64,000 nucleotides of DNA from NCBI GenBank assembly GCA_944381215.1, contig CALWKF010000001.1, positions 65,201-129,200 on the forward strand. The letters run 5' to 3'. Source of the DNA: an uncultured Clostridia bacterium (GTDB lineage: Bacteria > Bacillota > Clostridia > Christensenellales > UBA1242). This document shows, piece by piece, positions 6,337 through 62,511 of this stretch. The notes under the pieces were generated by a model that searched no databases, was not told the origin of the DNA, and saw nothing but the letters and a program-made list of their open reading frames with translations. Numbering within the stretch: position 1 is the first letter of the stretch; every line of letters starts with the position of its first letter. Position numbers and translations under genes: made by a program.

Positions 6337-7455
6337 ATGAAAATAGAAAATTTAGGAGAATACGAGGGTGAGATTTTAAATTTAGATGGTAAAATTTTAC
6401 CTCACGGGATTGGGAAATTAGTGACAAATGATGGGGCTATTTTAGAGGGAAAGTTTTACGAAGGTAAACTAAATGGCAATGGTAAAATCACTTACACCGA
6501 TGGTAGTAGTTTTGAGGGCAATTTTAGAATAGGTAAATTAAATGGATACGGTACCCAAGTTTATTCTAACGGAAATATCTATAAAGGAAATTTTGTAGAT
6601 AATATAAAAGTCGGTATGGGTCGACTTTACTTTAAACGCGGTAGATATAAGTATATTGAGTGTGTGTGGAAAGATGATGAAATGTTTGCTGATTTTATTA
6701 TTGGACTAAAAAATGGTACACAGAGAAGGGCGAAGATTGTTAATTCGAAAATTCATCTAATCAAACCTAACAAAAAATATTTGATAAATGTTGATGGCGT
6801 TAAACCATTTTCAGTATACGATATTTATCACGAAAGTGAGTATTTTAGTTTTAATACAACAAATTGGGATAGCGATGAAAAGTATTTGTATAATAAGTTT
6901 TTAGTAACTGAACTTGAAGTAGCAGACCTAAACCATAATGTTTTTCGGGCTAATCCCGTACATGATAATTTAGACTTTCTTGTTTTGCCTAATAATAGTG
7001 ATTTATACAAAGATTACAGGGCAGAATTTTTTGGCAAAGTTATGAGCAAGGTTTTCGATTATATTAGAGGGAAAACAGAGTTAGCAGGTGTTATCATAAA
7101 AGAAATACTAAGTAATTTTGACACAAATAAGATTTGTCAGCGAATAAAGAAGTACAAGGATAGGTGGCTGAGGCGAAAAGAGGATTTTTCATTAGTAATA
7201 GGGGATGAAAATGTAAATTCTATTTTAAATGACCTAAATGCAGATAATCTTGAGAATAACGAATTTATCTTATCTTTGCCGCAAAAGACCGCCGAACTTT
7301 TAGACACCGTGAGTGATGATACATTAAGGAAAAATATTAATATAAAAATTGAAATAGATGCGGAAAATCAGCAGGCAAGTTTATTTGTATATGATGAAAT
7401 GGGATTCATTGAATTTATTATAAATATTGATATAAGAGACATTTTGAAAAAATAA
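6337..7455 (+). CDS. MORN-repeat protein with uncharacterised C-terminal domain
   Basis: N-terminal ~100 aa are tandem MORN-type repeats (YEGEIL..GKILPHGIGKL..GAILEGKFYEGKLNGNGKITYTDGSSFEGNFRIGKLNGYGTQVYSNGNIYKGNF). AGGAGG RBS. The gene is visibly AT-richer than its neighbours. Confidence 0.7.
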   Translation: MKIENLGEYEGEILNLDGKILPHGIGKLVTNDGAILEGKFYEGKLNGNGKITYTDGSSFEGNFRIGKLNGYGTQVYSNGNIYKGNFVDNIKVGMGRLYFKRGRYKYIECVWKDDEMFADFIIGLKNGTQRRAKIVNSKIHLIKPNKKYLINVDGVKPFSVYDIYHESEYFSFNTTNWDSDEKYLYNKFLVTELEVADLNHNVFRANPVHDNLDFLVLPNNSDLYKDYRAEFFGKVMSKVFDYIRGKTELAGVIIKEILSNFDTNKICQRIKKYKDRWLRRKEDFSLVIGDENVNSILNDLNADNLENNEFILSLPQKTAELLDTVSDDTLRKNINIKIEIDAENQQASLFVYDEMGFIEFIINIDIRDILKK

Positions 7456-7953: not shown

Positions 7954-7971
7954 TTTTTCTACAATATTTAA

Positions 7972-7997
7972 AGAACCGTTTCCGCGGTTCTTTTTTG
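7972..7997 (+). terminator. rho-independent terminator of rplS
   Basis: agaaccg / cggttct 7-bp stem with a 6-nt loop, then a T run. Confidence 0.75.
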
Positions 7998-8003
7998 CTT
8001 TTT

Positions 8004-8335
8004 AAAGAGGATACTGGGCTGGCGCGGTGCGTAGGTGTATTCCAAATATATTTAGGGTCATCCTGAGTGTCGACCCGCGTAGCCTTTGTAACTCAGCGCA
8101 TATGGAAAGTAGCAATAGAAATATTTAGCATGACGCTGCCCGAAGGATCTCATTCCTGCCTCTTAAAACAAACGGAGCACAAGTAATCGCTTTAAGAGGC
8201 TACTGTGGCTAGCGCGAGAGCATTCATTTCTAATTATACCAATCACTTACGCGCCAGACTTCCCGCAAGCGGGAAGGCATCCTGAGCCCGCCCCGCGAAG
8301 CCTTTAGACGAAGGATCTATTCCTCTTAGATACTT
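8004..8335 (+). repeat. mosaic GC-rich intergenic repeat array 1 (same module family as 59250-60062)
   Basis: Modules: X (8014-8056, CTGGGCTGGCGCGGTGCG...ATATATTTAGG); long core (8057-8153, GTCATCCTGAG...GTAACTCAGCGCAT...GACGCTGCCCGAAGGATCTCAT); Y (8203-8277, with the cttcccg-caag-cgggaag hairpin at 8259-8276); short core (8278-8320). No ORF. Confidence 0.85.
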
Positions 8336-8382: not shown

Positions 8383-8411
8383 TTGCTAAAACCTCTAAAT
8401 ATTGATATAAT
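8383..8411 (+). promoter_or_regulatory. strong sigma-A promoter of paralogue A
   Basis: TTGCTA (8383-8388), 17-nt spacer, TGaTATAAT extended -10 (8403-8411). The same block recurs at 60157-60185. Confidence 0.6.
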
Positions 8412-8452: not shown

Positions 8453-8512
8453 ATGGAGCACTCTTTTAATACAAAAATGCATAAAAACCTACGGGGGGGG
8501 GGCGCTTTCTAG
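8453..8512 (+). other. 5' leader ORF (MEHSFNTKMHKNLRGGGAF*) carrying G10; the true N-terminus of paralogue A when the tract is 9 or 12 G
   Basis: AGGAGG at 8440-8445, ATG at 8453. With 10 G the frame stops at TAG 8510-8512. Deleting one G reads through as ...NLRGGALSSLIISCIAILILCAVFGLSFAQF..., in frame with ORF 8553-10772. Confidence 0.7.
8493..8502 (+). repeat. poly(G)10 homopolymer (candidate slipped-strand switch)
   Basis: Counted directly: acGGGGGGGGGGcgc. Confidence 0.9.
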
Positions 8513-8552
8513 CCTAATAATATCTTGTATCGCAATTCTTATTTTATGTGCG

Positions 8553-10772
8553 GTGTTCGGCCTATCCTTTGCTCAATTTATCAAAAACTCCAGCAACCCA
8601 GTAAACGCATTTACCGTTAGTAGCTCAAATGCGGTCATAGTTCCTCAACTATGGAACAGCAGTACACAGTCTTTTAACCGTGATGCAATGTCTACGCTAC
8701 TTAAGTACATATCAAGCGATGGTTCCATTAATAGAGTAAACACCACTCAACAAACCGCGGCAGATATTCGTGGATACACCTATAACGGCAAAACAAATAG
8801 TCAGGCAGTAGTAGTAACCATAGGCGATTATCAGTGGCAAGTAGTCTACCTTACTCGCACAAACAACACCAGTGGTGATCGTATAGCCACACTCTTAATG
8901 GTAGACAATGGTGGCACCGCTTCATTTAGTCACGGTGGATATGATAGAGGTAACAACTGGACAGGTGCTTATCCCTCCAATATGTATGGTGCTAGTTACC
9001 TTCGTGCTGTTACGCTAAACAATGGTGGAACGTACGCTAATATTACTGTTACTTATAGTAATTCATACTCAACTGCAACAGCAACTCAGTCCTCATCTCA
9101 TAAATACGCTTTATATACGGTAGCCTCACAAGGACTAACTAATTACTTAGTACAGCCTAAAAATGTATGGTATCAAACACGGGCTCAACTAACAGGCAGT
9201 GCTAATCCAGAAGGTTACACTTTAAACAACGAGTCTCTATCCACAACCATAAGTACAGGCTGGAACAACAATAATGCTTCTACTTACTCTTATCAATCTA
9301 AAGCCAACTACACGCAGTGGAGGAATGACTATCTCTGGTGTCCTAGCCTTTCAGAAACAGGTACAAGTAATTCTAAGTTAGGTATTTGGGAGTTATCCAC
9401 AACAGAACGTTCAGCTTCTACTGATTGGTGGTCGCGGTCTGGTGGCTATTCTAATTCGGACTCTGCTTACTACCTTGATTCCTCCGGCTCCAGCTGTAAT
9501 GACAGCGTTGTGCACTATAACAACGGCGTGCGGGTAGCGCTTCACTTAAATCTTGATAAAATTGCTCAAGATTTAACATACGCAATAACTGCCACATCGG
9601 ATACACAAAGTATCGTAGATAAAAATTCGTTAGAATACTACTTATTATTAAACGCCGAAGTTACCTTTACATATACTGCAAACCCCAATTATTATATAAA
9701 TCAAGTTCAAATTGGTTCTACTACAGTAACTAATTTCCAAACTACAATACCTAGTAGTTTTACTAACGCGGGTACTTTTCAATACAAGGCATATAGAGTA
9801 AATAATAGTAATAGTGTAAGTGTGGTGTTAAAGTCACTTACTACCGATTTAAATTTATCGTGTAGTGCGCAATCATACATTAATATCTCCACCGAAAACG
9901 CGGCGGTAACCGTAAATAGTTATAATCGAACGAATTATTTTTCTACGACCGCTACAATTTCCGTTCAACAAAATGTGGCATACACCCAGAGGTTTAGATT
10001 ACCAAGCCAAAACTGGATAGATATTAGCACAACTGCCTCGGGCGATGGTTATGTCGGCAGTATTTATTACCAGTACACGACCGCCAATAATGTTATAACC
10101 CTAAATTTCGAAAACCTCACCTTAGGCACAGTTTTTGAGGTCATCTTCAGCGGAGATGAGAAACCACTCTCATACACTGCAACGGGTGGCACGGCGACCT
10201 TCGAGGAATTTATAGATGATGAGGGCTACACCAATATAATCGTGCGCCCAGCAGAAGGCTATTATGTGAACACGATTACGGTCGACAACGTGGCCTTTAC
10301 TGTCGAGTACTACCGCGCCGAAATCATGGGGGCGGGCAATGCTCGAATTATCGGCTACACCGTAAAGGACACCAACAACGTGCTCGACTTGTGGCTCGTT
10401 GGGCAGTACGACAACTCCAACATCGTTTTCAACCTCTCCACAACTCGCCCTACCTACAGAGTCCCCGCGACAGGTGGGGCGGTTACTGGCACGGTAGTTA
10501 CTGCTGGTGCTGGCGGTGAAGCGCGCATTGTGGGCTTTGACTCAAGCGACACCGCAGATACTGACACTCTTACCTTTATCGCGGTAAGTTACTCGGGCTA
10601 CGCCTTCTCGGGCTGGGAGGTCGACGGCCAAATTCTCTCGGGCTACGGTTCGAATGCCTCGATTCCGTATTCGCTAGTTAAGGACAAAGTGGTAACCGCA
10701 GTCTTTACACCCACTTCGAATAACTCCGCAAACGGCACCACCGACAACCCCTGGGGCTCCGACATCGCCTAA
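8553..10772 (+). CDS. large secreted/surface protein, paralogue A: WWSRSG...GVRxALHLNL head (DUF6273-like) plus InlB-B-repeat-like C-terminus; as sequenced it lacks its signal anchor
   Basis: 739-aa ORF starting at an internal GTG with no RBS. Residues ~20-340 are highly similar by eye to the 60559-62511 product. The C-terminal YSGYAFSGWEVDGQ...VTAVFTP is a Listeria/Bacteroides-type B-repeat motif. Confidence 0.8.
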   Translation: MFGLSFAQFIKNSSNPVNAFTVSSSNAVIVPQLWNSSTQSFNRDAMSTLLKYISSDGSINRVNTTQQTAADIRGYTYNGKTNSQAVVVTIGDYQWQVVYLTRTNNTSGDRIATLLMVDNGGTASFSHGGYDRGNNWTGAYPSNMYGASYLRAVTLNNGGTYANITVTYSNSYSTATATQSSSHKYALYTVASQGLTNYLVQPKNVWYQTRAQLTGSANPEGYTLNNESLSTTISTGWNNNNASTYSYQSKANYTQWRNDYLWCPSLSETGTSNSKLGIWELSTTERSASTDWWSRSGGYSNSDSAYYLDSSGSSCNDSVVHYNNGVRVALHLNLDKIAQDLTYAITATSDTQSIVDKNSLEYYLLLNAEVTFTYTANPNYYINQVQIGSTTVTNFQTTIPSSFTNAGTFQYKAYRVNNSNSVSVVLKSLTTDLNLSCSAQSYINISTENAAVTVNSYNRTNYFSTTATISVQQNVAYTQRFRLPSQNWIDISTTASGDGYVGSIYYQYTTANNVITLNFENLTLGTVFEVIFSGDEKPLSYTATGGTATFEEFIDDEGYTNIIVRPAEGYYVNTITVDNVAFTVEYYRAEIMGAGNARIIGYTVKDTNNVLDLWLVGQYDNSNIVFNLSTTRPTYRVPATGGAVTGTVVTAGAGGEARIVGFDSSDTADTDTLTFIAVSYSGYAFSGWEVDGQILSGYGSNASIPYSLVKDKVVTAVFTPTSNNSANGTTDNPWGSDIA

Positions 10773-57973: not shown

Positions 57974-58681
57974 TTGATAATAGAAACTTTTGTCACTTTT
58001 ATGAATAAGATAATGTTGTTCTCATCGTATGTTGACCACGCATCTAGTTTCCCAAAGACCTTGACTCCCGAAGAGGAAAAATACTATATAGACCGAATGC
58101 GCGCAGGAGATACCGAGGCCAAAAACATCCTAGTCTCGCATAATTTAAGGCTGGTGGCTCATATAGTTAAAAAGTACAGCAACAGCTCAAAAGACGCCGA
58201 CGACCTAATCTCAGTCGGCGCAATCGGGCTAATTAAGGCGATAAATAGCTTTTCCCCCGAAAAGGGCGCACAACTGTCGACCTACGCCGCGCGCTGTATC
58301 GAAAACGAAATTCTTATGCTGTTTAGAGCAAACAAAAAACATCAGGGAAATATCTCCTTGGAGGAAACAATAGGCACGGAAAAGGACGGAAACGAAATAA
58401 TGCTCGAGGACGTAATCTGCGACATCGATACCGATATCGTGGAAATGGTCGAGAGCAACATTTTGACAGAAAAACTAATAAATATTATAAAAGGTTCGTT
58501 ATCAAATCGGGAGTACAAGATTCTCTGTATGCGCTACGGCATCGGGGGCGGGGTGGCCTATACCCAGCGCGAAGTTGCGAAAAAACTAGGCATATCTCGT
58601 AGCTACATCAGTAGGCTCGAAAAGAAGGCCATCGAAACGGTCCGCGCCGAGGTGCACGCCAAGAAAATTTACGCAGATTAA
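57974..58681 (+). CDS. sigK: sporulation sigma factor, pro-sigma-K type (uninterrupted)
   Basis: Pro-sequence plus SYVDHASSFPKTLTPEEEKYY...GD.EAKN.LV.HNLRLVAHIVKKY...YAARCIENEILM closely parallels B. subtilis SigK from memory. AAGGGGG RBS, TTG start. Confidence 0.85.
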   Translation: MIIETFVTFMNKIMLFSSYVDHASSFPKTLTPEEEKYYIDRMRAGDTEAKNILVSHNLRLVAHIVKKYSNSSKDADDLISVGAIGLIKAINSFSPEKGAQLSTYAARCIENEILMLFRANKKHQGNISLEETIGTEKDGNEIMLEDVICDIDTDIVEMVESNILTEKLINIIKGSLSNREYKILCMRYGIGGGVAYTQREVAKKLGISRSYISRLEKKAIETVRAEVHAKKIYAD

Positions 58682-58780
58682 AAAAATTAGGCATTTCTAG
58701 GAGTTATATTAGCAGGCTTGAGAATAAGGCCATAGAAATGATTTGCGCCGAAGTGCACGCAAAAAATCTACGCAGATTAA
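58682..58780 (+). repeat. diverged tandem ghost copy of the last ~33 codons of sigK (region 4.2)
   Basis: Aligns to 58580-58681 base for base, with roughly one difference in five and a 1-nt deletion near the end. Starts directly after the sigK stop codon. Confidence 0.85.
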
Positions 58781-58869
58781 AAAAATTGACAAAAATTGTG
58801 CTATAATATTTTACATTTTCTCGCAATTGTTGTACAATACTAATATTAATAATAGAAAGGAGATAGATT

Positions 58870-59208
58870 ATGGCTGAAACAAAAAAGAGTTCTAGCTCAA
58901 AGTCTTCGAGCAGTAGCAGTAGTAGTAGCAGTAAGAAGTCATCAATGTGGGGCTTAAACAAGATTTCGTTCTACACAATCGCCGCAGTTGCAATTTTATA
59001 CTTGATTAGTTTAATCTTGTCTGCTTGTGGCGTTTCATCTGTTGCTGTAATGGCTATGCAGAATATCGGTACTGCTATTATGGTAGGTATCACCGCATAT
59101 CTAGCATGGAAGTATGTTCGCCCTAAACAAACCGTTTGGAAAGTACTATACTTCGTACTGTTGCTCGTAATTCTAGCTGGTATTATCGTGCCTCTAGTAA
59201 TGGGCTAA
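58870..59208 (+). CDS. small membrane protein with poly-Ser N-terminus
   Basis: AAGGAG RBS. KKSSSSKSSSSSSSSSSKKSS is encoded by an AGY/TCN run. Three hydrophobic segments. Strong terminator. Confidence 0.7.
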   Translation: MAETKKSSSSKSSSSSSSSSSKKSSMWGLNKISFYTIAAVAILYLISLILSACGVSSVAVMAMQNIGTAIMVGITAYLAWKYVRPKQTVWKVLYFVLLLVILAGIIVPLVMG

Positions 59209-59216
59209 AAACAAAA

Positions 59217-59243
59217 AACTTGGGATACCCCAAGTTTTTTTGT
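59217..59243 (+). terminator. rho-independent terminator
   Basis: aacttggg / cccaagtt stem with a 4-nt loop, then T7. Confidence 0.8.
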
Positions 59244-59249
59244 TTTTAA

Positions 59250-60062
59250 AGGCCATTATACTAACGCAGTGCGAGGACGTACTTCCAAATATATTTAAGG
59301 TCATCCTGAGCCCGCCCCGCGAAGCCTGAGACGAAGGATCTCATTCCTGCCACTTTTAAAAGGACACTGGGCTGGCGCGAGAGTATTCGTTTCTAATTAT
59401 ACCAATCATTCGCGCGCCAGACTTCCCGTAAACGGGAAGGCATCCTGAGCCTCGACCCGCGAAGCCCTTTGTAACTCAGCGCATAGGAAAAGTAACAATA
59501 GAAATATTTAGCACGACGCTGCCCGAAGGATCTCATCTCATCCGCTTAAAAAGGACACTGGGCTGGCATGGTGCGAAGTCGCACACAATATATTTAAAGT
59601 CATTCTGAGCCCGCCCCTCGTAGCCTTCGACGAAGAATCTCATTCCATCCGCTTTAAAAGGCCACAGGGCTGGCGCGAGAGTATTCGTTTCTAATTATAC
59701 CAATCATTCACGCGCCAGACTTCCCGCAAGCGGGAAGGCATCCTGAGCCCGCCCCGCGAAGCCTTCGTAACTCAGCGCATAAGAAAAGCAACAATAGAAA
59801 CATCTAGCATGACGCTGCCCGAAGGATCTCATCTCCTTTGGTCATCCTGAGCCCGCCCCGCGAAGCCTGAGACGAAGGATCTCATTCCTGCCTCTTAAAA
59901 CAATGCCCAACAAACCATAAAGATGTAGTAGAACAAAGCGGCTGAGATTCTTCGTCTCAGGCTCTGTAAGCAGGGCTCAGAATGACAGTGTTTTTTACCA
60001 ATAAAATCACTTAGTCATCCTGAGTGCCGACCCTCGAAGCTCTCAGACGAAGGATCTCATCC
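59250..60062 (+). repeat. mosaic GC-rich intergenic repeat array 2 (about 0.8 kb)
   Basis: Core copies: short 59300-59344, long 59441-59536, short 59599-59643, long 59739-59832, short 59841-59885, inverted short 59944-59986, short 60014-60060. Y modules: 59367-59440 and 59665-59738. X modules: 59261-59299 and 59556-59598. No ORF. Confidence 0.9.
59944..59986 (-). repeat. inverted copy of the short core module
   Basis: gagattcttcgtctcaggc...ggctcagaatgac is the reverse complement of the GTCATTCTGAGCC...GCCTGAGACGAAGAATCTC consensus. Confidence 0.85.
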
Positions 60063-60156: not shown

Positions 60157-60185
60157 TTGCTAAAAACCTCGAAAATTGTTATAAT
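60157..60185 (+). promoter_or_regulatory. sigma-A promoter, homologue of 8383-8411
   Basis: TTGCTA (60157-60162), 17-nt spacer, TGtTATAAT (60177-60185), within a block homologous to 8338-8420. Confidence 0.55.
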
Positions 60186-60362: not shown

Positions 60363-60422
60363 ATGAAGTACTCTTTTAATACAAAATTGCATAAAAACCT
60401 ACGGGGGGGGGGCGCTTTCTAG
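60363..60422 (+). other. relic leader ORF (MKYSFNTKLHKNLRGGGAF*) carrying G10, now a uORF in the 5' leader of paralogue B
   Basis: About 75 bp near-identical to 8459-8530. No good RBS. With 9 G it would run only to a TAA 14 codons later, not into the gene. Confidence 0.6.
60403..60412 (+). repeat. poly(G)10 homopolymer, second copy
   Basis: Counted directly: acGGGGGGGGGGcgc, in the same context as 8493-8502. Confidence 0.9.
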
Positions 60423-60558: not shown

Positions 60559-62511
60559 ATGATAAAATTATCCAAAACTAAAACGAGTTTAATAGTAACC
60601 CTTGTCTGCATTTTCTGTATAGCCACACTATTAACCGCTTTTTTATTTACCCCGAAAGATATGGTAAACGCATTTACCAGTGTCGATAGTTCGAACGCAG
60701 TCGTTGTGCCTCAATTATGGGGTGAGTCCAGCCAGTCTTTTAACTATGATGCAATGTCAACACTACTAAGTTACATATCCAGTGATGGCACAATTAATGG
60801 GGTAAATACTACCCAGCAGACCGCCGCAGACATTCGCAACTATACCTACGGAGGAAAAGAAAGTGGAAAATCAGTCGTAGTAACTCTAGGTGATTACCAA
60901 TGGCAAGTAGTATACCTAACTAGGACAGGTAACACCACCGGCGACCGTATAGCCACATTACTAATGGTTAATAACGATGGTACAGCTAGTATAACTCCTG
61001 GTGGCTTCGATAGTGGTAGTAACTGGACAGGTGCTTATCCCTCTAATATGTATGGTGCTAGTTATATGCGTGCAGTTATCTTAAATAATGGCGGAATATA
61101 TGCTAATATTACTGCTGATAGTAACAATTCATATTCAACAGCATCAGCTACTCAATCTGCATCGCACAAGTACGCATTATATACTGTAGCCTCACAAGGA
61201 CTAACTCATTACTTAGTACAACCTAAAAATGTATGGTACCAAACCCAAGCACAGTTAACAGGCAGTGCTAATCCCGATGGATACACTCTAAACAACGAGT
61301 CATTATCTACCAGTATAAGTACAGGCTGGTACAGGAACTACGCTTCTGGTTACTCATACCAAACAAAGAACTATTACACCCAATGGGGGAATGACCATTT
61401 GTGGCTACCCAGCCTTTCAGAGACAGGTACAAGTAATTCTGAGTTGGGTATTTGGGAGTTGTCCACAACAGAACGTTCGGCTTCTAATGAGTGGTGGTCG
61501 CGGTCTGGTTGCTATAATGATTCGTACAGTGCTTACTTCCTTTATCCTTCCGGCTCCATCTCTCGTATCGGCATGGTGCACACTAGCTACGGCGTGCGGC
61601 CTTCGCTTCACTTAAATCTTGACTCTGCATTGAATAATTTAACAAATGATATAATAGTAGAGTCAAACGATTCTACTCAAGGTACAGTTTCAGGCGGTGG
61701 AGTGTATGACTTTGAGTATACGGGCACCACCACAATCACTGCACTTGCAAATTATGGCTATGTATTCGACTACTGGCAAGACAGTAGCGGGAACAAAATT
61801 TACCAAAACCCATATACTTTTCCAGTAACTAAAAGCGAAACATATACTGCATATTTCCGTGAACCTATAATTACAATTACATCCTCAAATGGTGGTGCCG
61901 AAATTACTCGTACAGACACCGATCCCGGCAACGTGTCAATCACTTATGGCCTAACATTTTCTGCAAATAATTATATATCGGGCATAATAATCAATAGCGG
62001 AGTTGTCCAAGATATCGGGAGCCTGAGTGGTGATTTAATAGTTGATGACACTTGCACCGCCATAAGTTACCGCACCAACACAACGGGCTCGCAACTCATA
62101 CTTGAAATTTTTCAAGTTACCAACGATATCACCATAAACCTAATATTTGTCGACATTGCCCAAAGTTACACCCCCGCCAGTGGTGGCACTAGTATTACGG
62201 GTGTCGCATTGCAAGTGAGCGGAGGCAATGGCGCGACCTTTGAGGCGGTAGGAGAGGCTCGAATCACAGGCTACTCCCAAGCCGAAAACATCACCTACGT
62301 GCACGTGAGCGCAGTCCCTTCGAGTGGCTACTATTTCGTAGGCTGGCAGACTAGCGACGACACCGACCTAAGCGATTACGGAAGCAGTGCCGACATCCCA
62401 TACAACCTAATCGAGGGAAAAATACTCACCGCTGTCTTCGCCCCCAAAACTTCTCAAAATGCCGACTCCACGCTAGACAACGCAGGGGACCAGTTTGCAC
62501 CCACTAGTTAA
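60559..62511 (+). CDS. large secreted/surface protein, paralogue B (DUF6273-like head plus B-repeat-like domains), intact with its own signal anchor
   Basis: MIKLSKTKTSLIVTLVCIFCIATLLTAFLF signal anchor. LWLPSLSE...WWSRSG...GVRPSLHLNL. GYVFDYWQDSSGN and GYYFVGWQTSDD repeat motifs. Confidence 0.85.
   Translation: MIKLSKTKTSLIVTLVCIFCIATLLTAFLFTPKDMVNAFTSVDSSNAVVVPQLWGESSQSFNYDAMSTLLSYISSDGTINGVNTTQQTAADIRNYTYGGKESGKSVVVTLGDYQWQVVYLTRTGNTTGDRIATLLMVNNDGTASITPGGFDSGSNWTGAYPSNMYGASYMRAVILNNGGIYANITADSNNSYSTASATQSASHKYALYTVASQGLTHYLVQPKNVWYQTQAQLTGSANPDGYTLNNESLSTSISTGWYRNYASGYSYQTKNYYTQWGNDHLWLPSLSETGTSNSELGIWELSTTERSASNEWWSRSGCYNDSYSAYFLYPSGSISRIGMVHTSYGVRPSLHLNLDSALNNLTNDIIVESNDSTQGTVSGGGVYDFEYTGTTTITALANYGYVFDYWQDSSGNKIYQNPYTFPVTKSETYTAYFREPIITITSSNGGAEITRTDTDPGNVSITYGLTFSANNYISGIIINSGVVQDIGSLSGDLIVDDTCTAISYRTNTTGSQLILEIFQVTNDITINLIFVDIAQSYTPASGGTSITGVALQVSGGNGATFEAVGEARITGYSQAENITYVHVSAVPSSGYYFVGWQTSDDTDLSDYGSSADIPYNLIEGKILTAVFAPKTSQNADSTLDNAGDQFAPTS

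Follow-up and report, generated by a model that had tools for sequence, protein, structure and literature searches.

The repeat array described here lies at positions 59,250 to 60,062 of a 64,000-nucleotide stretch (the window) of contig CALWKF010000001.1, from an uncultured Clostridia bacterium of the Christensenellales, and its closest described counterparts are the CGTC-tagged repetitive extragenic palindromes (REPs) and the intergenic mosaic elements of Neisseria (NIMEs). According to Di Nocera et al. 2013 (PMC3733652), CGTC-tagged REPs are found in several phyla and carry a CGTC tag, often TGTC and also CCTC, a stem starting with A-T pairs, and unpaired tails, the classical form having an 8-9 bp stem and a 4-5-nt loop. 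The superfamily includes Neisseria dRS3 and Rickettsia RPE-4 and RPE-6, in Neisseria and Wolbachia these REPs form clusters with other repeats in between, and the authors report no dedicated transposase (PMC3733652). NIME arrays are syntenic yet dynamic, have a wave-like G+C profile, and lie beside variable surface-protein genes (Bentley et al. 2007, PMC1797815); arrays of this type were described in 2007 as not observed outside Neisseria (PMC1797815). We propose that the array described here is probably a cluster of REP-type DNA repeats, arranged as a NIME-like intergenic mosaic and remodelled by recombination, whose nature is selfish or structural. A REP-type mosaic is an element of a kind already known; the host lineage is new, and REP/NIME-like mosaics are thereby extended to a gut lineage of the Firmicutes.

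The array at 59250-60062, hereafter array B, contains seven cores that alternate with repeated connectors termed X, Y, and W (Table 1). Cores begin with GTCATYCTGAG… at the 5' end and finish with …CGAAGRATCTCAT at the 3' end. The set comprises four short cores on the + strand, two long cores, and one inverted short core; short cores measure 45-47 nt and long cores 96-98 nt, the latter including a 53-nt insert. With up to two mismatches allowed, GTCATCCTGAGC has 12 matches against 2.4 expected, a count reached in none of 100 shuffles, and CGAAGGATCTCAT has nine against 0.8 expected. A unit of approximately 298 bp, present twice (59288-59586 and 59587-59885; spacings 299, 298, and 296), makes up most of array B. 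The GTC is retained in five of the seven cores, where it is preceded by G, A, or T, while the two cores fused to connector Y have GGC instead. The G+C content of array B is 50%, compared with 43% for the window and 23% for the promoter and leader region that follows; individual cores have 51-62% and linkers 22-48%. The only other set of modules in the 64-kb window is at 8002-8322, where array A occupies 8014-8322. Both arrays lie between an intrinsic terminator and a promoter-like site, and no + strand promoter-like site was found inside either of them.

These modules sit where a first-pass annotation, made from the sequence alone, had placed them, and its observation of the array is confirmed. 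Its count of at least seven cores also holds, with the amendment that one of them (59942-59986) is inverted and on the - strand. It had described connector Y accurately as containing an 8-bp stem around a 33-nt loop and a hairpin cttcccg-NNNN-cgggaag with the loops taaa, caag, and caag, although the module is 73 nt long rather than 74 bp. The head CTGGGCTGGC that it attributed to both types of connector is missing from the first X connector (59250-59299). The array is non-coding, as it had stated, the largest open reading frame (ORF) within array B being 47 aa. It had also argued that the array is not a CRISPR. A CRISPR consists of identical repeats separated by unique spacers; here, the intervening modules themselves recur, both in the window and at 20 loci of a related metagenome-assembled genome (MAG).

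The core ends match a repeat plan of (C/T)GTC, AT(C/T)CT, GA, hairpin, GA, AG(G/A)AT, and CTC. Exact core termini are present in viral contigs, mostly as the 29-mer GTCATCCTGAGCG(C/A)AGCGAAGGATCTCAT, and occur in at least 120 IMG/VR stretches on contigs of 34-70% G+C. They are also present on plasmids from Planktothrix, Calothrix, Gloeothece, Phocaeicola, Hymenobacter, Aquicella, Ensifer, and Granulicella, eight genera that represent four phyla (Cyanobacteria, Bacteroidota, Proteobacteria, and Acidobacteria). The remark in the first-pass annotation that the core ends recall GC-rich repeats of unrelated bacteria is thus borne out. The 29-mer is predicted to fold into a 5-bp stem ATYCT/AGRAT, a 2x2 GA/GA internal loop, a 2-bp GC/GC stem, and a GNA triloop, and the GA/GA internal loop could form tandem sheared G·A pairs. 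Pairing of the closing stem was assessed in viral contigs from the position that is C or T (Y) and its partner that is G or A (R), in a scan that admitted each of the four possible combinations. Among the matches listed, 96 distinct copies gave the combinations CG (48), TA (45), CA (2), and TG (1), so that a Watson-Crick pair is kept in 93 of the 96; the Y and R positions therefore pair, and wobble is not tolerated. Likewise, the C/G and T/A stem types are mixed (ATCCT with AGAAT, or ATTCT with AGGAT) in none of 49 aligned Christensenellales cores, whatever the type of interior. Outside the generic element there is no conservation except for a T before GTC, present in 89% of 151 copies.

A sister family with the plan (C/T)GTC-ATTGC-GAG…CGAAG-GCAAT is abundant, accounting for 101 of 144 distinct matches in its scan. 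Complementary ends were found in 112 of the 144 matches, where 9 would be expected, and the base preceding GTC in this family is T (62) or C (45). Interiors of 13-20 nt contain stems of at least 4 bp in 24% of cases, compared with 0% in shuffles. In longer generic copies the apex is replaced by unrelated hairpins, relatives with 5-nt interiors (CGNAG) exist, and copies in other taxa often form convergent inverted pairs 12-40 nt apart. By its sequence, the core is a lineage-specific, enlarged derivative of this cross-phylum repeat. A blastn comparison of the whole array with plasmids and phages gave no match, its conserved segments being too short and discontinuous.

Set against the published description of CGTC REPs, the core family shares the unpaired (C/T)GTC tag, A-T as the first two stem pairs, a covarying stem, and a short unpaired tail. 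It is similarly extragenic, multi-copy, and spread over several phyla, with inverted pairing in relatives and clustered mosaics in some hosts. The classical size rule fits the relatives with 5-nt interiors but not the window cores, whose tail is CTCAT or CTATTCC instead of CCA. The host also differs, Firmicutes/Clostridia lying outside the five phyla that the authors name (PMC3733652).

Phage-classified contigs (the comparison loci L010, L013, L113, and L277, and other IMG/VR loci) commonly carry generic (C/T)GTC-tagged repeats, with up to six copies in approximately 10 kb, and in low-GC phage contigs they are mostly intergenic. Phages may help the generic repeat family to spread. Around generic copies the only recurrent neighbour genes encode phage structural proteins, no transposase was found in the region between the convergent copies of L010, and the copies show no clear bias of orientation relative to genes.

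Connector Y folds into two hairpins, H1 and H2, with a stability well beyond that of shuffled sequences (z = -4.4 to -4.5, as RNA or DNA). In an alignment of 26 copies of Y, 98.7% of cells pair; 3 of the 15 pairs show compensatory change and most are invariant. The stem-preserving variation that the first-pass annotation had read as a sign of selection on structure is real; it is modest for Y and very strong for the core closing stem. In the Clostridia MAG L058, the second Y hairpin is kept with a wholly different stem (CTATTTGC/GCAAATAG versus CTTCCCG/CGGGAAG). The loops seen in this hairpin are taaa, caag, cgag, ctcg, and caaa, of which cgag and ctcg are mutual reverse complements. Cores taken alone fold no better than shuffles (z approximately +0.5). 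Rfam searches of the window (gathering and E-value modes) and of ten related loci (gathering) returned no relevant family, the sub-threshold hits being chance matches around the terminator. On inspection by eye the core lacks the conserved residues that a hammerhead, a kink-turn, or an attC site requires, and these readings were rejected.

A genome scan for the core gave 20 stretches in one uncultured Christensenella MAG (CASEHF01). The same scan matched L058 and true relatives in Armatimonadia and Chloroflexota-like MAGs, the remaining matches being chance occurrences in coding DNA. Profile searches of the MAG loci and the window detected 53 cores, 24 copies of Y, 25 of a further module, Z, and eight inserts; the window contributes eight cores and three Y, and CASEHF01 holds at least 45 cores, 21 Y, and 25 Z at its 20 loci. 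Module Z, found in this related MAG, ends in the hairpin GTGCG-N4-CGCAC, and connector W is by eye weakly like its 5' part, although the Z profile does not match it. MAG arrays usually have the order Y-core-Z, with a constant Y-core junction and Y always abutting a core; many are bracketed by inverted Z ends, and MAG cores mostly begin with TGTCAT. None of 26 MAG arrays overlaps a long ORF, save for one doubtful ORF of 168 codons. Module Y looks restricted to this lineage: a scan of metagenomes for the Y-core junction gave 55 stretches, all of them chance matches in high-GC coding DNA. Modules are oriented toward the G-rich strand in ratios of 37:16 (cores), 19:5 (Y), and 20:5 (Z), where copies within an array are not independent. 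In the window, seven of eight cores are on the + strand, which has the positive GC skew and the majority of genes, and the G·A-forming strand would therefore be the lagging-strand template.

The arrays vary between strains, as seen in L-numbered comparison contigs and loci that are all metagenome assemblies. Array A has a different layout in nearly every strain contig, with flanks 98-99% identical and an identical RplS protein. Six layouts occur among L072-L079, in which L072 has the window sequence; they differ in whether core-Y blocks are inverted, in the number of X-core units (one or two), in core length (long or short), and in the Y interior, of which there are three types. The orthologous MAG site (L034/L075) has yet another layout of array A. 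Array B consists in L001 and L002 of one degenerate Y, one core, and one fragment, and in L004 of a long core followed by an inverted core. Independent assemblies are concordant (L001 with L002, L075 with L079, and L072 with the window), and many short contigs terminate inside arrays. Unequal crossing-over, conversion from other copies, and small inversions appear to account for these changes. At the arrays of the strain contigs no clean insertion accompanied by a target duplication was seen, and no insertion polymorphism was found in ten strain contigs across window positions 21-41 kb, where there is no array.

Through this interleaving of cores with X, Y, W, Z, and the insert, the arrays appear to be a mosaic organised like Neisseria NIMEs and, more loosely, like the bacterial interspersed mosaic elements (BIMEs) of E. 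coli. As in NIMEs, a short GC-rich palindromic repeat alternates with families of 20-150-bp repeated units, G+C content follows a wave, and the same site is occupied across strains by units of variable number and content. Variable surface-protein genes are again neighbours, and the genome likewise has apparent phase variation through a homopolymer. The repeat and connector sequences differ, with a core of ATCCTGAG…CGAAGGAT in place of dRS3 ATTCCC-N8-GGGAAT, and only the Y hairpin H2 (CTTCCCG-N4-CGGGAAG) loosely resembles dRS3. Unlike NIMEs, in which inverted repeats flank each unit, the cores are mostly direct; many arrays adjoin housekeeping genes, and no link to a phage/IS110-type recombinase is known here.

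BIMEs are built from REPs with a GTAG tag in alternating orientation, and the associated REP-associated tyrosine transposase (RAYT) is flanked by REPs. Palindromic units and defined linker motifs, combined into mosaics in extragenic DNA, are common to BIMEs and the present arrays. The latter have no GTAG tag, follow terminators instead of lying within transcripts, and yielded no RAYT with an approximate query. The first-pass annotation had suggested looking for such a dedicated enzyme; tblastn for an IS200/Y1 transposase over 1.6 Mb of loci, approximately 0.2 Mb of which belong to this lineage, gave no match with that query, which could miss RAYTs. Pneumococcal BOX, likewise a modular repeat of a Firmicute, has approximately 45-bp units in variable number and is predicted to adopt a secondary structure. 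Its order is fixed as A-B-C (boxA, boxB n times, boxC) whereas modules are permuted here, and the core here belongs to a cross-phylum family. Of the four options that the first-pass annotation had listed, the BIME/REP-like element is the one supported by the evidence.

We propose that the element would act as DNA, not as a protein or a dedicated RNA, and would lack a dedicated function. The arrays would occupy untranscribed gaps between terminators and promoters, with hairpins forming on transiently single-stranded DNA or as cruciforms. Units would be continually remodelled by unequal crossing-over between them, by gene conversion from distant copies, and by small inversions at hairpin loops. 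Several observations weigh against this proposal. Core interiors in the window span 20-72 nt (20-23 nt in the short form and approximately 72 nt in the long form) and are not a simple continuation of the closing stem. The likeness to CGTC REPs is to the general features of that superfamily, of whose four families (CGTC-1 to CGTC-4) the present sequence family may or may not be one (PMC3733652). Cores are mostly direct (six of seven in array B) where BIME units alternate, and no mobilising enzyme was found in approximately 0.2 Mb of this lineage or 1.6 Mb in all. The comparison sequences come without exception from metagenome assemblies, where arrays of repeats are liable to misassembly. Finally, the orientation bias would also suit a role at the RNA level, as would a Y-core unit in L058 that lies approximately 25 nt upstream of a ribosome-binding site.

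An RNA-level role would mean that the modules are transcribed as small RNAs or as cis-acting structures for processing, stability, or 5'-UTR control. Besides the L058 unit, the strong Y fold (z approximately -4.4), its few compensatory changes, and the tendency of modules to share the direction of flanking genes and the G-rich strand are consistent with this. We nevertheless consider it very unlikely, and the structured-RNA option of the first-pass annotation is disfavoured: both arrays follow an intrinsic terminator, precede the next promoter, and contain no + strand promoter-like site, wobble-type combinations make up just 3 of 96 in the closing stem among the matches listed, Rfam gave no match, both orientations occur, and module order shifts between strains. 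Alternatively, the modules might be relatives of miniature inverted-repeat transposable elements (MITEs), which have terminal inverted repeats, target-site duplications, and both filled and empty sites. As non-autonomous elements mobilised in trans, they would build arrays by nested or adjacent insertion, and a long core would have arisen from a short one by insertion of a 53-nt element at the apex. Mobility of this sort is favoured by dozens of scattered intergenic loci, by the inverted Z ends (GTGCG-N4-CGCAC) that bracket many MAG arrays, by apical inserts of widely differing length in relatives, and by copies in phage contigs. It is made doubtful by the finding of neither a target-site duplication nor an empty-versus-filled site, by the lack of new insertions across window 21-41 kb in ten strain contigs, and by the fact that unequal recombination explains the observed changes in unit number; the sampled DNA also contained no transposase-like multi-copy ORF, and the approximate query gave no IS200-like match. 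It is hardly credible that the arrays are leftovers of a segmental duplication behind the two paralogous genes that follow them (paralogues A and B) and their upstream regions. Both arrays do lie upstream of paralogues that have a common promoter and leader sequence, but the same modules occur at no fewer than 20 other loci beside unrelated genes and the core termini are found across phyla, observations by which this explanation is refuted.

The arrays might instead promote allele exchange and rearrangement of the surface-protein genes downstream of them, which we regard as unlikely. The genes that follow the two window arrays are paralogous and encode secreted proteins that match Flg_new_2 and DUF6273 weakly, and related surface-protein genes adjoin arrays in L034, L036, L048, L051, L059, and L064. 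Members of a single InlB-B-repeat (Flg_new_2) family thus lie beside both window arrays and beside five or more MAG arrays. The paralogue genes (8553-10772 and 60559-62511) are 78-82% identical between strains (window against L073, L074, and L001) beside flanks of 98-99%, which points to diversifying selection or allele exchange. In addition, loci A and B are arranged differently in the scaffold of another strain, the arrays are syntenic yet dynamic as NIMEs are, and H2 is loosely similar to dRS3. However, the drop in identity starts at the coding sequence and not at the array. The 230 nt of promoter and leader between array and gene are 96.5-98.7% identical at array A, and the promoter and leader at array B are 94-96% identical; because this DNA beyond the array is still highly identical, the idea that the array is the edge of the divergent segment was rejected. 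Moreover, only 4 of 20 array-flanking ORFs scanned are Flg_new_2, the others comprising nine from housekeeping or other ordinary families (including ArgRS, FtsW, a P-type ATPase, and an HtrA-like protease) and seven with no match. No transposase or recombinase is among these 20 ORFs, and no recombinase was found near any array.

A cluster of REP-type DNA repeats in a NIME-like mosaic thus remains our preferred reading. A bolder extension of it, which we rate as rather improbable, would have NIME-type arrays in gut Clostridia built on the ancient (C/T)GTC hairpin that they would share with those of Neisseria, with the folded core as a candidate site for a single-stranded-DNA recombinase or transposase and the arrays as contingency-locus machinery for exchange and rearrangement of adjacent phase-variable, fast-diverging surface-protein genes. 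The sequence and structure of the core base are conserved in Clostridia, Cyanobacteria, Bacteroidota, Proteobacteria, and phage contigs. To our knowledge, the conserved core hairpin has no cognate enzyme; anything that recognises it would be either broadly distributed or highly mobile, and its discovery would explain how REPs of the CGTC type spread. For annotation, the present work names the repeat behind spurious small ORFs (MRSF…AQDD-type peptides) and behind contig breaks in Christensenellales assemblies. A literature search by DNA strings and by spurious-peptide strings returned nothing relevant. The arrays are also natural strain markers, and they flag hypervariable surface-protein loci in a health-associated gut taxon.

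Table 1. Modules and flanking signals of arrays B and A (window coordinates).
Feature	Position	Strand	Remarks
Intrinsic terminator, upstream 112-aa gene	59213..59240	+	12-bp stem and T run; left limit of array B
Connector X0	59250..59299	+	3' end AATATATTTAAG; without CTGGGCTGGC head
Core 1, short	59300..59344	+	ATCCT/AGGAT type
Connector Y1	59367..59439	+	H1 59372-59379 / 59413-59420, 33-nt loop
Y1 hairpin H2	59422-59428 / 59433-59439	+	loop taaa (59429-59432)
Core 2, long	59439..59536	+	insert 59471-59523; fused to Y1, GGC for GTC
Connector X1	59558..59598	+	CTGGGCTGGC…GTGCGAAGTCGCAC…ATATATTTAAA
Core 3, short	59599..59643	+	compensated ATTCT/AGAAT type
Connector Y2	59665..59737	+	H2 loop caag (59727-59730)
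Core 4, long	59737..59832	+	insert 59767-59819
Core 5, short	59841..59885	+	identical to core 1
Connector W, AT-rich	59886..59941	+	not detected by Z profile
Core 6, inverted	59942..59986	-	ATTCT/AGAAT type; differing interior CCCTGCTTACAGAGCC
Core 7, short, 47 nt	60014..60060	+	right end of array B
Promoter-like site, paralogue B locus	60157..60185	+	TTGCTA-17-TGnTATAAT; ~95 nt downstream of array B
rplS terminator	7970..7993	+	left limit of array A
Array A connector X	8014..8056	+	
Array A long core	8057..8153	+	insert 8088-8140
Array A connector Y	8205..8277	+	H2 loop caag (8266-8269)
Array A short core	8276..8322	+	
Promoter-like site, paralogue A locus	8383..8411	+	60 nt downstream of array A

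Paralogue A has a poly-G tract (8493-8502) in its 5' leader (8453-8555). The reading frame that starts at the ATG at 8453 meets a stop when the tract has 10 G (window, L072) or 11 G (L076), while with 9 G (L074) it continues into a 739-aa ORF, adding a signal/transmembrane start. The length change has the appearance of phase variation by slipped strands, affecting a large surface protein. Paralogue B has a relic of the leader and tract (60365-60412, poly-G 60403-60412) approximately 150 nt upstream of its own start, and a G-run also lies upstream of the Y-core unit of L058.

L001 and L076 both derive from scaffold_2260 (31 kb) of ERZ16268101. In this scaffold, locus B (the 112-aa gene, array, and paralogue B) is the upstream one, at a distance of approximately 8 kb from rplS, array A, and paralogue A; in the window locus A comes first, 51 kb ahead of locus B, and what follows paralogue B is unrelated. 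The two arrangements differ by a rearrangement whose ends lie close to the loci of the paralogues and arrays. A 372-aa MORN-repeat gene between yraN and rplS (window 6337-7455) is absent from L074 and L076-L078, which have extra AT-rich repeats (…ataaagctagc…) after rplS in its place.

Immediately before array B, an (AGCAGT)n repeat (window 58909-58933) gives the 112-aa membrane protein a run of serines. A 101-bp tandem duplication (window 58580-58787; 2.1 copies, 81% match) covers the 3' end of a sigma-factor gene (57974-58681) and DNA beyond it. Within array A, a promoter-like site on the - strand (window 8045-8073; TCGACA-17-TATATT, 10/12 matches) points back to rplS and is made of the core interior and the AT-rich end of connector X. 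The TGTCGAC interior is common to many MAG cores, and outward transcription from some units is conceivable.

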